Assembly (NCBI GenBank): GCA_963666865.1
Contig: OY763072.1
Coordinates: 842,572-906,571 of the forward strand
From: Dehalococcoidia bacterium
GTDB lineage: Bacteria > Chloroflexota > Dehalococcoidia > Lucifugimonadales > UBA3495
Direction of reading: 5' to 3'
Length of the DNA stretch: 64,000 bases
Shown: in pieces, positions 7,707-20,962 of the stretch
Numbering within the stretch: the first letter of the stretch is position 1
Layout of the letters: each line of letters opens with the position of its first letter
Notes under the pieces: generated by a model
Databases searched by the model: none
What the model was told of the DNA's origin: nothing
What the model saw: the letters and a program-made list of their open reading frames with translations, nothing else
Made by a program: the position numbers and the translations under genes

Positions 7707-7931
7707 GCCGCCGGTTGCAACTTGGGTCGGCTGGCCCGGTGCGCGTCTGTCCACGCGTGAGCGAGCGCCAGTATGCGCGGTCCGCACAGTCGAAGTAGTT
7801 GTACTGCTTTCAGAGAGAGACACTACCGACAAATGCGGAGATTTCACGCCCAGCAGCGCGTGTGCTACAATGCGGTCACCGGGCGGGACGGCTGTGGTCC
7901 GCCCGACAACAAATGCCAGGGAGGTGCCACA

Positions 7932-8564
7932 ATGGCCGAATCCGATTTCACCGTTTATTACGACTTTCGTTGACCCTTCGTGTACAACGCTGCCATGTGG
8001 TGGGCGAAAGTACGCGAGAACACCGACCACGAAATCACCGTGGATCTGAAGCCGTTCTCGCTGGTTCAGGTAAATCACGACAACAACAATGACGACGGGT
8101 TCAAGTACTGGGAGCAGGACGACTCTGACAACACCCTGCTGGAACTCCGGGCCGGCATCGCCGCCCAGCGCCAGGGTGAGGAGATCTTCGACCGCTTCTT
8201 CATCAACCTGCTCAAGGCTCGCCACGAGGACCGCATTGACCTGACCGACGCCGATGCCATCAACGCGGTGGCCGAGGCCTCCGGCGTGGACATGGGCCAG
8301 TTCGCGGAAGACCTGGCCGACCCTGACGTCCTCCGGGAAATCGGCGAGAGTCACACCGAGGCTGTGGAAGTTCACGGCGCGTTCGGCGTCCCTCTGTACG
8401 TCTTCCCCAACGGCAACTCCGCCTTCGTCAAGATGTTCATTCCCTCCGACGACGAGTCCGGCGCCATCTATGACAACCTCGTCGAGATGATGGCCGACCA
8501 CAAGCACGTCGGTGAGGTCAAGCGGCCCTCCCCGCCGTGGCCCTACGAAGGTGTGCGCGGATAA
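7932..8564 (+). CDS. DsbA-like thioredoxin-fold oxidoreductase; candidate selenoprotein (in-frame TGA 7971..7973)
   Basis: GGGAGGTG lies 7 nt before ATG 7932. MAESDFTVYYDFR-TGA-PFVYNAAMWW..., same frame as ORF 7980..8564. The TGA falls at the Cys of the DsbA-type YxDxxCP(F/W) motif. GTG 7980 has no RBS. Confidence 0.6.
7977..8018 (+). promoter_or_regulatory. candidate SECIS-like hairpin downstream of TGA 7971
   Basis: Outer stem uucguguac/guacgcgag (9 bp including 2 GU); inner stem cgcugcc/ggugggcg with one bulged G; apical loop AUGU at +25..+28 from the U of UGA. Confidence 0.35.
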
Positions 8565-9315: not shown

Positions 9316-9371
9316 TCGGAGCATAATCTATAATAGAAACACCCACGCCATGGCTGTTGGGAGGAATGCTG

Positions 9372-9701
9372 ATGATTGAGCTGACTAAAGAGGTCAAACA
9401 GCAGGTAATCGACCTGGTCCGGGCCGACCTGGCCGAGAAGTTCGGCCCCGAAGACCCCATCGTGTTCGGCCCCATCGTCATAGATCCCAGACTCGACCCG
9501 GACGGGGATGAGTACTTCCATATCTACGTGGTCTATGACGGAGACGATGATCTGATGGAACCGCTGTGGACCGCAGATATGACCTGGCGGCTGTGGCCCA
9601 AGTTGACGGCCATGGGAATACCGGAGTCGCCGACCAAATCCTTCGTCGAGAAATCGGAGTGGGAAGAGGTTCTGGCGGAAAAGTTCCGTGAATCCCAATG
9701 A
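9372..9701 (+). CDS. small acidic hypothetical protein, upstream partner of a HEPN-like gene
   Basis: GGGAGG lies 8 nt before ATG 9372. The stop overlaps the next gene by 14 nt. No family recognised. Confidence 0.5.
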   Translation: MIELTKEVKQQVIDLVRADLAEKFGPEDPIVFGPIVIDPRLDPDGDEYFHIYVVYDGDDDLMEPLWTADMTWRLWPKLTAMGIPESPTKSFVEKSEWEEVLAEKFRESQ

Positions 9702-10173
9702 CCTGATTGACTCCGCCCGACAACGGGCCGGCGGAGCGGTCCCGCCCGGGCGAGGACGCCCACGGCAAACCGACCTGCAACGGGCGGTGAGCGACACCTA
9801 TTACGCTATGTTTCACACTCTGACAACCTGCGCAGCCAATGCACTGGTGGGAACCAGCCGCGCTGCCAGAAGGCAGCCGGAATGGCGTCAAATCTACCGT
9901 GCACTGGAACACGGCTATGCCAGGCGACAATGCAGCAACAATCGGGCACTTGCCCAATTTCCCACGTCGATACGGAGGTTCGGGCGTCATTTCGCAGACA
10001 CCCAACAGCTGCGCCATCTGGCCGACTATGACCCAGACAGCAACCTGACCCGCCGGGAAGTCCTACGTCTCATTAACGAAACCGAACAAATCACACAAGC
10101 ATTTGACCGTGCTCCCGCCGACCGCCGCCGCGCCTTCGCCATCTATGTCCTGTTCCGCACCCGGACAGCTTGA
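9688..10173 (+). CDS. HEPN-like domain protein (putative toxin of a two-gene cassette)
   Basis: All-helical; AVSDTYYAMFHTL...QQLRHLADYD resembles the HEPN core helix and the R..ADY motif. GTG start overlaps the upstream ORF. Confidence 0.45.
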   Translation: MNPNDLIDSARQRAGGAVPPGRGRPRQTDLQRAVSDTYYAMFHTLTTCAANALVGTSRAARRQPEWRQIYRALEHGYARRQCSNNRALAQFPTSIRRFGRHFADTQQLRHLADYDPDSNLTRREVLRLINETEQITQAFDRAPADRRRAFAIYVLFRTRTA

Positions 10174-10230
10174 CCCAGCGGGAACTGACAACTTGCCGCC
10201 TACCAACTCCGCTGATAACCTTTCCTCACT

Positions 10231-17342: not shown

Positions 17343-17873
17343 ATGCCCGCTGCCGCCGACGGCCTCATCTCCGCTTTGGAAAACAACTTCACCACCGTTG
17401 ACCTCGCGCTGAAAGATCTCACCGACGAGGAATTTCACCGCATCCCGGCGGACGACTGCAATTCGGTGGCCTGGATTCTCTGGCACCTGTCCCGGGTAAT
17501 AGACTCGTTCATCCACACCAGACTCCGGGACCTGCCCCAGCTGTGGGACGCCAACAACTGGGAGCGGCATTTCACCATGCCGGCCGATGGTGAAAGTCGC
17601 GGCTTGGGCTGGACGCACCAGATGGTATGCGACTGGCAACCCCCGGCCCGCAGCTTGCAAATGGACTACTTCGAGCAGGTCCGCACCGCCCTGCGGGAAT
17701 ACCTGCCATCGCTCACGGAAGCCCAGATGCAGCAGGCGAAGATCATCCCGCCGGTGTCGGAGCCGCGCAGCGTGGCGGCGGCGCTGGGGCAGATGACCTG
17801 GGACTGCGTTTCCCACGGCGGCCAGATCGCCTACCTGCGCGGGATGTACAAGGGCATGGGCTGGCACCGCTAG
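17343..17873 (+). CDS. DinB-family (four-helix bundle) protein
   Basis: 176 aa; WILWHLSRV and C-terminal H..G(Q)I.YLRG pattern. Confidence 0.65.
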   Translation: MPAAADGLISALENNFTTVDLALKDLTDEEFHRIPADDCNSVAWILWHLSRVIDSFIHTRLRDLPQLWDANNWERHFTMPADGESRGLGWTHQMVCDWQPPARSLQMDYFEQVRTALREYLPSLTEAQMQQAKIIPPVSEPRSVAAALGQMTWDCVSHGGQIAYLRGMYKGMGWHR

Positions 17874-18926: not shown

Positions 18927-19352
18927 TCAGGAAGGCCGGTCCCGACGCTCCTGCTCTCGCTCCTCCGCCTTGTCGCGCAGGGGACGCCCCTTGTCCGGGG
19001 TCGGGTCTTTCACCAGGCCGTAGATGGCGCGGCCTTCGTGGTCTTCAGGAAGATATTCCGTGATGGGCAGACCGCCCTCCGTCACGAAAAGCAGTCAATG
19101 ACAGTACTTGTAGATCTGCATATCGTCGCAGGCGCAGATCCAGGTGCGGTGCTTGATCTCCTCCGTCTTACAGGGGTAGAAGCGGCAGGGGCAGAGGGGT
19201 CGGCCGAGTTCATCAACGTTCTGGGCGAGGCCCAGGATTACGGATTCGGCGATTCCCTCTTCCGGGTGCGTGAATGTGCCCGACTTCTCGCAATAGCGTT
19301 CGACAAACAGGCGCATCCGCTGGATGGCTTTTTCACTGGGCTGGTCAGCCAA
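18927..19352 (-). CDS. ferredoxin-thioredoxin reductase catalytic-subunit-like protein; candidate selenoprotein (in-frame TGA 19097..19095)
   Basis: AAGGAG lies 7 nt before TTG 19352. ...GRPLCPCRFY..WICAC..YKYCH-TGA-LLFVTEGG... The frame stays open 55 more codons to TGA 18929..18927, 8 nt before the downstream GT start. The TGA replaces the last Cys of the FTR CHC(M/L)LF motif. Confidence 0.65.
19065..19077 (-). promoter_or_regulatory. candidate SECIS apical stem-loop
   Basis: mRNA GGGC-GGUCU-GCCC; loop at +25..+29 from the U of UGA. Extendable by further pairs with two 1-nt bulges. Confidence 0.4.
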
Positions 19353-19575: not shown

Positions 19576-20898
19576 GTGGATATAACCGTAATCGGCTTGG
19601 GTTACGTGGGCACGGTGGCCGCCGCCAGCCTGGCCGCCGCCGGGCACCGCGTGCTCGGGGTGGACATTGACCACGACCGGACAACTTTAATGCGGTCGGG
19701 CGCGATACCTTTCTACGAACCGGGGTTGCAGGAGATTATCCAATCCGCCGTAGCCACCGGCTGCCTGCGTTTCGCGCACCGTGACACCGTGGCCGGACCG
19801 TTAGGAGAGGTCGCGCTCATCGCCACCGGAACCCCGCAGACGGAAGGGGGAGCCGCCGACTTGAACCAGGTGCGTTCGGCGGTGTCCTGGATAAAGTCGC
19901 AGCCGTCCAGCAACCCGGTGATCGTGATGAAAAGCACGGTACCGCCGGGCACCGGACAACGCATCATCGAGCACGATTTGGCCGGCTCCGGGCTGCGCTA
20001 CGTTTCCAACCCCGAGTTCCTGCGGGAAGGGCAAGCGGTTGAAGACTGGCGGAACCCGGACCGCATCGTCGTCGGCGCCAATCCCGGCGACGGCGAAGCC
20101 ATCGCCGCGATCAAGGCCATGCACGTGGGCATCGAGGCGCCCTACATCATCACCGACATCACCAGCGCGGAGATGATCAAGTACGCCAGCAACGCCTTCC
20201 TCGCCACACGAATTTCCTTCATCAACGAGATAGCGTCCCTGTGCGACCGGGTGGGAGCGTCCATCGATGCCGTGAGCGACGGCATGGCCATGGATCCCCG
20301 TACCGGCGGACGCATTTACGCCGGCGTGGGATACGGCGGCTCGTGCTTCCCCAAGGACGTGCGCGCGCTGGACCACCTGGGCCTGACCAGCGGCGCCAAC
20401 GTGGAGCTGCTGCGCTCGGTCATCAACATCAACAACCGGCAAAGGCTGCTGCCGCTCTACGCCCTGCGCGAACGCTTTGACGCCAACATGGCCGGTCTGC
20501 GCGTCGCCGTGCTGGGACTGTCCTTCAAGCCCGATACCGACGACATCCGCGATGCTCCATCCCTCGACCTCATCCGGGCGCTGGTTGACGAGGGCGCCAT
20601 CGTGAGCGCCTATGACCCGGAGGCAATGGAGGCCGCCCGGCCACATCTGCCGCCCTCGGTACAGCTGGCCGAAAACGCCCTGGAAGCGGCCAACCAGGCG
20701 CAGGCCGTCGTCCTGATCACGGAATGGCGTCAGTTCGTCAACGCCGACTGGCGAGACATTGCCCGGTCCATGCGACCGCCTCGTTTCGTATTCGACGGGC
20801 GCAACGCACTGGATGCGGTGGATATGCAGCGACTCGGCTTTGAATATACCGGCGTGGGCCGCAACAACTTGAACGGGATAGGGGATGGTGGGCGGTAG
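19576..20898 (+). CDS. ugd: UDP-glucose 6-dehydrogenase
   Basis: 440 aa; VIGLGYVG Rossmann N-terminus and GGSCFPKD catalytic motif. GTG start. Confidence 0.9.
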   Translation: MDITVIGLGYVGTVAAASLAAAGHRVLGVDIDHDRTTLMRSGAIPFYEPGLQEIIQSAVATGCLRFAHRDTVAGPLGEVALIATGTPQTEGGAADLNQVRSAVSWIKSQPSSNPVIVMKSTVPPGTGQRIIEHDLAGSGLRYVSNPEFLREGQAVEDWRNPDRIVVGANPGDGEAIAAIKAMHVGIEAPYIITDITSAEMIKYASNAFLATRISFINEIASLCDRVGASIDAVSDGMAMDPRTGGRIYAGVGYGGSCFPKDVRALDHLGLTSGANVELLRSVININNRQRLLPLYALRERFDANMAGLRVAVLGLSFKPDTDDIRDAPSLDLIRALVDEGAIVSAYDPEAMEAARPHLPPSVQLAENALEAANQAQAVVLITEWRQFVNADWRDIARSMRPPRFVFDGRNALDAVDMQRLGFEYTGVGRNNLNGIGDGGR

Positions 20899-20962
20899 TG
20901 GACTCGAACCACTGACCTCTTGCGTGTCGAGCAAGTACTCTAACCAACTGAGCTAACCGCCC
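20886..20962 (-). tRNA. tRNA, anticodon GAC (Val) if the canonical 7-nt loop is assumed; CCA encoded
   Basis: Cloverleaf by hand: acceptor GGGCGGT/ACCGCCC, D arm GCTC..GAGT, anticodon stem CTTGC/GCAAG with loop TCGACAC, T arm AGTGG-TTCGAGT-CCACT, A73, CCA. Position 33 reads C, which is unusual. Confidence 0.8.

Follow-up and report, generated by a model that had tools for sequence, protein, structure and literature searches.

A DsbA-like gene with a predicted selenocysteine-encoding UGA at its active site in marine Dehalococcoidia

DsbA-like selenoproteins have been described in several forms. The UxxC proteins (form 1, or DsbA 1 and DsbA 2; Sargasso Sea 2005, PMC1088965; 2026 review, PMC13188914) have the Pfam DSBA fold, selenocysteine (Sec) at the N-terminal Cys position, a retained resolving Cys and a SECIS element directly downstream in the coding region. 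The GOS DsbA 3 (UxxV) proteins, defined in Table 2 of their original description (Zhang & Gladyshev 2008, PLoS Genet, PMC2398784), were published as five short-read sequences without genome context together with 72 Cys homologs. A further entry of the 2026 review is "form 2 (DxxUP)"; NCBI gives its representative, MDP6049977.1, the name crotonase family protein (PMC13188914). Among Cys-containing proteins, DR2335 of Deinococcus radiodurans (PDB 7DK9) is a cytoplasmic protein with a single-nucleophile motif (FDFL-C-PYAW) and no second Cys; as no functional data have been reported for DR2335 (PMC8945050), it gives no clue to the substrate. Rv2466c (a mycoredoxin-dependent nitroreductase), FrnE, DsbM, GST-kappa and HCCA-isomerase share the fold class, are likewise found in the cytoplasm and work together with a low-molecular-weight thiol, either mycothiol or glutathione.

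The bacterial SECIS (bSECIS; Zhang & Gladyshev consensus, with E. coli fdhF as the prototype) is a stem-loop that closely follows the UGA on its 3′ side and lies inside the coding sequence. Recent criteria specify an apical loop of 3-9 nt, an upper stem of 4-16 bp, a position 16-37 nt after the UGA and a minimum free energy (MFE) of ≤ −7.5 kcal/mol, with a G in one of the first two loop positions that is usually followed by G or U, and a subset of elements departs from this consensus model (PMC13188914). The Sec trait is present in many Chloroflexi. BSepDB, for which a genome must have at least 2 Sec-pathway genes, contains Dehalococcoidia MAGs with 46-49 selenoprotein genes, and SelA and SelB occur together in most sponge-symbiont bins.

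We analyzed a 64-kb stretch of Dehalococcoidia DNA (hereafter the window) around a DsbA-like reading frame interrupted by TGA. Positions 7932-8564 on the plus strand very probably constitute one gene, encoding a 210-residue cytoplasmic DsbA 3 (UxxV) selenoprotein of marine Dehalococcoidia/SAR202. The TGA at 7971-7973 is real and almost certainly encodes Sec at the DsbA-like active site. The original prediction had arrived at the same Sec reading, and the tests of it that could be run were favorable. The features of the locus are as follows.

7919-7926, plus strand: Shine-Dalgarno sequence GGGAGGTG, read from the sequence; a GGAGG-type Shine-Dalgarno lies at the same place in 80/80 related genome loci
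7932-8564, plus strand: probable selenoprotein coding sequence of 210 codons including Sec14, with stop codon TAA at 8562-8564 (translation, Pfam, BLASTP)
7932-7970, plus strand: 13-codon N-terminal segment MAESDFTVYYDFR, encoding strand β1 of the thioredoxin fold (conservation, AF2)
7971-7973, plus strand: predicted Sec-encoding UGA, codon 14, at the nucleophilic-Cys position of the helix α1 N-terminus
7988-8006, plus strand: conserved stem-loop, candidate bSECIS core (pairing, covariation, loss in Cys forms)
7977-8018, plus strand: extended hairpin with a lower stem below the core (MFE; poorly conserved in the family)
7968-8009, plus strand: suppressed synonymous variation over codons 13-26, including the CGT 5′ of the UGA (synonymous entropy)

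Direct reading of the sequence confirmed the predicted layout, in which ATG 7932 is followed by 13 codons, the in-frame TGA and a frame that stays open (PFVYNAAMWWAKV...) to its end at 8564. The strong ribosome binding site that had been placed before this ATG is present, with a spacer of 5 nt and not the 7 nt originally given. Residues around Sec14 translate as YYDFR-U-PFVYNAAMWWAK; the motif at the TGA is U-P-F-V, Val17 lies three residues past Sec14, and there is no Cys anywhere in the protein. Across homologs, the stop codon of the gene is TAA (n = 55), TAG (n = 25) or TGA (n = 1). The gene order DsbA-like, rnc, ftsY, DUF2298 is shared with orthologs, and the ORFs of the rnc-ftsY gap had no Pfam matches.

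With Cys placed at the TGA, the protein matches Pfam DSBA (PF01323, E = 9e-16), with an additional weak Rv2466c-like match; a search of NCBIfam 20, selenoprotein models included, matched 0 families. BLASTP against JCVI_READ_1592875, listed under "#DsbA 3 UXXV" in PMC2398784, gave 50% identity over 202 residues (E = 8e-74), with the U of that read aligned to the TGA. PF01323 and the motif U-x-x-V place the protein in the DsbA 3 (UxxV) family, with which it shares the motif FDFR-U-PFVYN. Compared with the published GOS set, the window gene comes with a 64-kb Dehalococcoidia context, and the Sec form makes up the large majority of its close orthologs. The earlier statement that DsbA-like selenoproteins were already known from metagenome surveys proved right down to the exact UxxV subfamily. 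Because a 2008 study of ocean metagenomes had already predicted selenoproteins of this family, the UGA gene described here is a well-supported but ordinary case, and neither the protein family nor the recoding mechanism is new.

An AF2 model of a natural Cys ortholog (P0018, pLDDT 89.8) assigns residues 6-10 to strand β1 and positions Cys14 at the N-terminus of helix α1. As β1 begins at residue 6, the N-terminus is too short to hold a signal peptide; the CPHC-type dithiol motif of classical periplasmic DsbA is likewise missing, and the protein has a single redox residue. The UxxC selenoproteins retain a resolving Cys three residues after Sec, whereas the window protein has Val at that position and no other Cys, and its chemistry must therefore be of the monothiol type. 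The nearest solved structure is that of DR2335 (phmmer E = 6.5e-16, Foldseek TM 0.77), which has Cys instead of Sec and ~27% identity to the window protein; the phmmer alignment spans residues 7-201, including ...IRRPVP. The window protein also has the C/U-P-aromatic-x motif, DsbA fold and C-terminal (E/I)KRP segment of the DR2335-like single-Cys clade, and 43 of 45 full-length distant relatives read C-P-aromatic-x without a second Cys. Rv2466c, FrnE and DsbM, in contrast, use CPWC-type dithiol motifs and are 17-22% identical to the window protein. The original description as DsbA-like or mycoredoxin-like holds insofar as this is a cytoplasmic, single-Sec, monothiol-type DsbA-like protein, but it is neither a classical CxxC DsbA nor a mycoredoxin. 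Relatives of ~415 aa were also considered as "crotonase" fusions; this assignment was rejected, as they are fusions to dephospho-CoA kinase (CoaE).

TGA occupies codon 14 in 80/80 species-representative Dehalococcoidia/SAR202 genomes, at protein identities from 98% down to 59%. Of the metagenome contigs, 77 were scorable and 76 of these have the TGA, which is also kept in more distant relatives (44-47% identity); start and leader are conserved along with it in all three sets. A few rare orthologs, located in the same synteny, carry TGT or TGC (Cys) at exactly this codon and read FYDFR-C-PFVYN, as expected from the claim that the TGA lies on the nucleophilic Cys codon. Cys is the only alternative codon meaning observed at the site in orthologs. 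The site also aligns with the Cys of the DR2335 motif, for which a deposited mutant (7DKA) is C24S. On sequence grounds, a UGA that replaces a catalytic Cys and has Cys as its only alternative is the classical Sec/Cys signature.

Constraint on synonymous positions is concentrated around the UGA. Each of the 78 distinct genome sequences has CGT as the preceding codon, as do the remaining displayed TGA-form locus sequences apart from L084 (AGC, Ser), and CGC precedes the Cys codon in 6 of 7 Cys forms. Normalised synonymous entropy over codons 13-26 is 0.279 versus 0.584 for the rest of the gene, the lowest of 162 sliding windows, and 0 of 20,000 permutations gave a value as low.

Downstream of the UGA, a 7-bp upper stem (7988-7994 paired with 7999-8006, with one bulged base on the 3′ side) closes a 4-nt apical loop, AUGU, at 7995-7998 (+25 to +28 from the U of the UGA). 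Across relatives, 92.3% of upper-stem cells are paired, compared with 20-77% in slid controls. Counted without a tree, the upper stem has 25 double-sided changes versus 9.1 ± 2.2 in shuffles (0/500), carried by a few of its pairs; pair 7988-8006, for example, is C-G in 62 of 93 sequences and U-A in 24 of 93, both at synonymous third positions. The helix is broken in 7/7 distinct Cys forms, and the fixed-structure energy is −8.4 ± 1.4 kcal/mol in the 93 Sec forms versus −3.0 to +2.0 kcal/mol in the 7 Cys forms. By these comparisons, the upper stem-loop is conserved and specific to TGA forms. The candidate SECIS is an unusually clean natural example, with double-synonymous compensatory changes and matched Cys orthologs that lack the helix, and data of this kind could help train selenoprotein predictors.

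The hairpin originally proposed at 7977-8018 with loop AUGU does form in the local segment of the window (MFE −17.8 to −18.4 kcal/mol). Its upper half is the conserved part, but its lower stem (7977-7985/8010-8018) is not conserved, being only 78% paired over 65 sequences and having mostly lost the pairing at its center. As a single sequence, the hairpin is not significantly more stable than shuffled versions (z = −1.26; 23 of 200 equalled or exceeded its stability), so its significance derives only from the comparison across relatives. The full 42-nt hairpin, tested in two registers, was rejected as the core element because conservation of the lower stem is confined to the clade of the window. 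An alternative RNAalifold helix, CGUUG/CAACG, which includes the UG of the UGA, was rejected as it shows no covariation.

Measured against the bSECIS model, the window element matches in its small loop (4 nt), 7-bp upper stem, distance from UGA to loop (21 nt) and stability (−17.8 kcal/mol). It differs from the consensus in the single bulge on the 3′ strand and in having G at loop position 3, such that the loop rule is not strictly followed; binding of SelB is predicted. The loop is GUGU in 54 of 93 distinct relatives and GUCU in one, and both of these fit the rule. Rfam 15 returned no SECIS or other relevant match, either at gathering thresholds or at E ≤ 10 on positions 7850-8150.

We propose that translation begins at ATG 7932 and that the UGA is decoded as Sec, and not as a stop, because the stem-loop at 7988-8006 acts as a bSECIS. 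Following the established bacterial mechanism, SelB, carrying GTP and Sec-tRNA(Sec), would be recruited to the ribosome by the stem-loop. Sec14 would then take the place of the nucleophilic Cys of CxxC proteins, in a thioredoxin fold that carries a helical insertion of the DsbA type. As Sec14 is the only redox residue, the catalytic cycle could not use an intramolecular disulfide. The selenolate would most likely attack a disulfide, a mixed disulfide or an oxidised substrate, and a thiol from outside the protein, belonging to a low-molecular-weight compound or to a partner protein, may resolve the selenenylsulfide or selenenic acid that forms. Such a cycle would resemble monothiol glutaredoxin, mycoredoxin or bacilliredoxin chemistry.

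Read-through without Sec would instead insert Trp, Cys or Gly, through a tRNA that is a suppressor or near-cognate or through reassignment of the codon in this lineage, with the hairpin as a general stimulator. A tblastn search with E. coli SelA, SelB and SelD gave no matches to selA, selB or selD in the window and all examined locus flanks, and no tRNA-Sec (selC) was found in the window, where ARAGORN gave only tRNA-Val and Rfam gave none; Sec machinery is thus attributed to the source genome from the lineage literature only. This result fits non-Sec read-through, as do the departure of AUGU from the bSECIS loop rule and the rendering of the codon as W by one pipeline (P0022). However, TGA terminates the DUF2298 gene (822 aa in the window versus 825 and 802 aa in relatives) as well as the GAF-domain and GT4 genes, which have full-length domain matches and homolog-like lengths. 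UGA is therefore not reassigned. The exclusive exchange with a catalytic Cys, the canonical SECIS spacing of the hairpin, the documented use of Sec in this selenoprotein-rich lineage and the listing of the family as a selenoprotein also argue against non-Sec read-through, which we consider very unlikely.

Still less probable is an arrangement of two products, in which TGA 7971 closes a 13-codon upstream ORF, and GTG 7980 or ATG 7995 serves as the start of a truncated DsbA-like protein. Public gene calls do begin MWWAKV, VYNAA or MYNAA, yielding "hypothetical proteins" of 189-194 aa, and other TGA codons of this genome act as stops. Neither GTG 7980 nor ATG 7995, however, is preceded by a purine-rich Shine-Dalgarno sequence, and in the AF2 model the truncated form would lose β1, the active-site residue and the start of α1, in agreement with the original objection to GTG 7980. 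The Pfam DSBA match already begins at residue 8, upstream of both alternative starts. No ortholog was found to begin at the equivalent of GTG 7980; the 80 genome loci each retain the Shine-Dalgarno, an ATG or GTG start and the 13-codon leader. The leader residues (F/Y)YDFR are invariant while third codon positions vary, as in protein-coding sequence, and in the Cys orthologs the N-terminal segment is continuous with the remainder of a 210-aa protein. The conservation of the leader that the Sec reading called for is thus observed, and from its pattern of substitution the segment at 7932-7970 is part of the protein and not a separate leader ORF.

In one sequence taken alone, a stop within the frame at codon 14 would usually indicate a pseudogene, a nonsense mutation or a sequencing error in a DsbA-like gene of the ordinary Cys type. 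The chance of this is negligible here: the same TGA recurs in >150 independent loci that come from different species and samples, their identities of 59-98% mean that they are not duplicates produced by assembly, and the frame beyond the TGA is intact and evolves under purifying selection.

Returning to the selenoprotein reading, the Sec form has come close to fixation throughout SAR202 and sponge Dehalococcoidia, a marine clade that is abundant worldwide, and distant Cys-type relatives occur fused to CoaE. Together these observations raise the possibility of a CoA-linked function. It is conceivable, though improbable, that the family is a selenium-dependent oxidoreductase for which coenzyme A, or some other thiol of low molecular weight, acts as the resolving partner, for example in removing CoA-protein mixed disulfides. 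If so, the activity would have no described precedent among DsbA-like proteins or selenoproteins. The coaE gene is not close to the DsbA-like gene in the window or at any examined locus.

The value of the finding is mostly practical. Public records truncate the gene or call it "hypothetical" (e.g., MYC29136.1, MBM3943305.1), and the truncation by annotation pipelines is explained by the lack of a matching Rfam or NCBIfam model. Accordingly, the selenoproteomes of SAR202 and sponge Dehalococcoidia are under-annotated by standard pipelines.

The second redox gene that had been predicted to carry a TGA at a catalytic Cys does exist ~11 kb away, which favors the Sec reading. It is an FTR-like gene on the minus strand (18927-19352) with TGA at 19095-19097, which converts CHC to CH-TGA. 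The hairpin of matching spacing claimed for this gene can form with a GGUCU loop that likewise begins 21 nt after the UGA, but it does not appear in the MFE fold of a larger region. Our result supports a picture of marine Dehalococcoidia investing heavily in selenium-based redox proteins. A codon-usage scan of the window for further TGA-bridged genes identified the FTR-like gene only.

The DsbA-like gene at 7932-8564 is very probably translated through its in-frame TGA by insertion of selenocysteine (Sec). Comparative analysis identifies it as a genuine selenoprotein gene under strong conservation, one more in a family described as early as 2008. The features of the gene and of its RNA are the following.

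7919-7926, + strand: Shine-Dalgarno sequence GGGAGGTG, read directly, followed by a 5-nt spacer and then ATG 7932
7932-7970, + strand: 13-codon leader MAESDFTVYYDFR, read directly, upstream of the TGA
7971-7973, + strand: in-frame TGA, codon 14
up to TAA 8562-8564, + strand: downstream same-frame ORF PFVYNAAMWWAKV..., open throughout
7988-8006, + strand: conserved upper stem-loop, 7 pairs with one 3'-side bulge and a 4-nt loop

This arrangement is as in the original prediction except for the spacer, which measures 5 nt rather than 7 nt, and the alternative start, GTG 7980, indeed has no Shine-Dalgarno sequence ahead of it. Translated with Cys at the TGA, the gene yields a 210-aa product in which the Pfam DSBA match (PF01323, E = 9e-16) begins at residue 8, upstream of every alternative start codon; a weak Rv2466c-like Pfam match is also present.

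Protein searches returned homologs of 210 aa with ...FYDFR-C-PFVYNA... and homologs of 189-194 aa, all of which start just past the active-site motif (MWWAKV, VYNAA or MYNAA) and are, as their DNA reveals, truncated gene calls. Codon 14 is TGA in 80/80 loci, the best 80 of 389 relatives in species-representative genomes, all of them Dehalococcoidia, SAR202 or Chloroflexota MAGs and many at chromosome level. Ahead of the TGA, each has a GGAGG-type Shine-Dalgarno sequence, a start codon (ATG or GTG) and a leader whose last residues are (F/Y)YDFR, at protein identities from 98% down to 59%. The TGA is also found in relatives of 44-47% identity (YYDFR*PYVYN, FFDYS*PFVYN), and P0022, a homolog with W at the site in its protein record, reads TGA in its DNA. 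Although the query leading the metagenome scan was a Cys form (an ortholog with TGT or TGC at codon 14), TGA still predominated (76 TGA, 1 TGC, 3 loci unscorable). That Sec is nearly fixed among close orthologs is new from this analysis. Codon 14 itself is TGT or TGC in eight Cys-form loci (7 distinct sequences), and at least two of them (L085, L169) share with the Sec loci the downstream order DsbA-like, RNase III, FtsY, DUF2298. Leader residues Y10, D11, F12 and R13 are invariant and third codon positions vary, the pattern expected of translated sequence.

Taken together, these comparisons exclude a separate leader ORF, a sequencing error and a nonsense mutation. Nor is TGA reassigned in this organism: housekeeping genes in the window terminate at TGA with full-length domain matches, the DUF2298 gene ends at TGA after 822 aa (825 and 802 aa in relatives), genes for a GAF-domain protein and a GT4 glycosyltransferase likewise end at TGA, and the stop of the DsbA-like gene itself across homologs is TAA in 55, TAG in 25 and TGA in 1.

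Selenocysteine insertion had also been proposed from a hairpin at 7977-8018, which folds at about −18 kcal/mol with loop AUGU at 7995-7998. Its stability in the window sequence alone does not exceed that of shuffled controls (z = −1.26), so the hairpin seen in one sequence is real but carries no significance of its own. Among 84 distinct CDSs aligned by codon, codons 13-26 have a normalised synonymous entropy of 0.279, against 0.584 elsewhere in the gene; of 162 sliding windows this one is the lowest, and 0/20,000 permutations reached so low a value. Across 65 distinct sequences the upper stem is paired in 92.3% of cells (slid controls, 20-77%) and shows 25 double-sided changes where shuffles give 9.1 ± 2.2 (0/500). 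In a set of 93 distinct sequences, 62 have C-G and 24 have U-A at pair 7988-8006, and each of its two columns is a synonymous third position (AAC/AAT, Asn; GCG/GCA, Ala). At pair 7992-8001, 82 have G-C, 10 have G-U and 1 has A-U. The apical loop reads GUGU in 54 sequences and AUGU in 37. The upper stem-loop of the predicted hairpin is thus conserved and its lower stem (7977-7985/8010-8018) is not, with 78% of cells paired and few of its central pairs intact beyond the window's clade.

Each of the 7 distinct Cys forms lacks 2-3 of the 7 pairs of the upper helix, and their fixed-structure energies run from −3.0 to +2.0 kcal/mol, against −8.4 ± 1.4 for Sec forms (n = 93; weakest −4.8). It follows that the constraint is a property of the TGA forms, not a general effect of the 5' end. 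By published criteria for bacterial SECIS (bSECIS) elements (spacing 16-37 nt, G within the first two loop positions; PMC13188914), the window element conforms in loop size, stem length, spacing (21 nt) and energy; its AUGU loop departs from the strict G rule, and the majority GUGU variant conforms. This cleanly defined conserved SECIS core, with Cys-form controls, is new from this analysis and, together with the conserved TGA and the Cys orthologs, supports the selenocysteine reading originally proposed. The Arg codon 5' of the site (7968-7970) is CGT in 78/78 distinct genome sequences and in all other TGA-form locus sequences shown except L084 (AGC, Ser), and CGC in 6/7 Cys forms; the CGT preference may reflect a codon-context effect on recoding. 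RNAalifold proposes a helix of CGUUG with CAACG that takes in UG from the UGA and shows no covariation.

A second TGA-containing redox gene lies in the window:

18927-19352, − strand: FTR-beta-like (ferredoxin-thioredoxin-reductase) gene, TTG start after AAGGAG

Its TGA (19095-19097) replaces the last Cys of CHC (CH-TGA). The hairpin GGGC-GGUCU-GCCC (−12.2 kcal/mol with its lower stem) places its loop 21 nt past the UGA, the spacing also seen in the DsbA-like gene. Against NCBIfam NF041072, "FtrB family double-selenoprotein", the FTR-beta-like gene scores only 47.5 bits, where the cutoff is 160, and it contains a single TGA, not two; an FTR selenoprotein was already reported from GOS in 2008 (PMC2398784). 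A search for selA, selB, selD and tRNA-Sec found none in the 64-kb window or any fetched flank; the sole tRNA and sole Rfam gathering-threshold match in the window is tRNA-Val (GAC; 20886-20962, −). Indirect support for Sec machinery comes from the FTR-beta-like gene and from the lineage. Dehalococcoidia MAGs in BSepDB (2026), which admits only genomes with at least 2 Sec-pathway genes, have 46-49 selenoprotein genes listed. Most sponge-symbiont bins contain SelA together with SelB, and many Chloroflexi, including Dehalogenimonas, have the Sec trait. One BSepDB Dehalococcoidia MAG shares UUID-style isolate naming with loci found here.

The AlphaFold2 model of P0018, the closest natural Cys ortholog (64% identical; pLDDT 89.8, pTM 0.87), places beta1 at residues 6-10, Cys14 at the N-terminus of helix alpha1, and a DsbA-type helical insertion followed by strands after a G-V-P loop, leaving no room in the model for a signal peptide. 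The best solved match by sequence and fold is Deinococcus radiodurans DR2335 (7DK9; C24S mutant 7DKA; phmmer E = 6.5e-16, Foldseek TM 0.77), which also has a single Cys (FDFL-C-PYAW) and no functional data according to a 2022 review (PMC8945050). Next come the cytoplasmic DsbA-like proteins Rv2466c, YjbH, GST kappa, HCCA isomerase, FrnE and DsbM. An exhaustive profile search gave 1,004 cluster representatives at E ≤ 1e-3 (75 at E ≤ 1e-30). Where a full-length hit has a recognisable motif, it is C-P-aromatic-x and lacks a second Cys in 43/45 cases. The predicted fold belongs to the single-Cys DR2335 clade, a recognition new from this analysis. Because the window protein contains zero Cys residues, Sec14 would be its only redox residue and the mechanism would have to be of monothiol type, with an external thiol resolving the Sec14 intermediate.

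The original prediction was right that DsbA-like selenoproteins, which rank among the top bacterial selenoprotein families, are already known: a Sargasso Sea study of 2005 reported UxxC forms (PMC1088965), and GOS 2008 lists "DsbA 3, pfam01323, UxxV" with 5 selenoprotein sequences and 72 Cys homologs (PMC2398784). The supplementary entry JCVI_READ_1592875 ("#DsbA 3 UXXV"; ...SIYFDFR-U-PFVYNVAVWL...; PMC2398784) is 50% identical to the window protein over 202 residues (BLASTP E = 8e-74) with its U aligned to the window TGA, so the family has already been published as a predicted selenoprotein; a 2026 review also names a "form 2 (DxxUP)" DsbA-like selenoprotein (PMC13188914). Also new here are the setting of the gene, taxonomic (Dehalococcoidia/SAR202) and genomic (adjoining rnc-ftsY), and its truncation in public annotation. 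Pipelines treat the TGA unevenly: one ENA record (P0022 / L086) reads Trp, and NCBI and most others shorten the gene to a "hypothetical protein" of 189-194 aa (e.g. MYC29136.1, MBM3943305.1).

The rnc-ftsY gap is about 915 nt in the window (9316-10230), with ORFs lacking Pfam matches, versus 32-69 nt in the related loci L081, L082 and L085. Three distant cluster representatives of about 415 aa (P0143, P0152, P0230) fuse a single-Cys DsbA-like domain to CoaE (dephospho-CoA kinase; Pfam E around 1e-46 to 1e-49), a faint hint that the family may be tied to coenzyme A in Rosetta-stone fashion; neither the window nor any fetched locus has coaE next to the DsbA-like gene. At one Cys-form locus (L174, JGI 3300042194), the ortholog lies between genes of two peroxidase families, AhpC/Redoxin upstream and OsmC downstream, which hints weakly at a peroxide-stress role. 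The window also encodes a DinB_2 / mycothiol-S-transferase-like protein (17343-17873, +; Pfam E = 9.5e-16 and 8e-11), of a family type that uses low-molecular-weight thiols, which may bear on the thiol that this organism makes.
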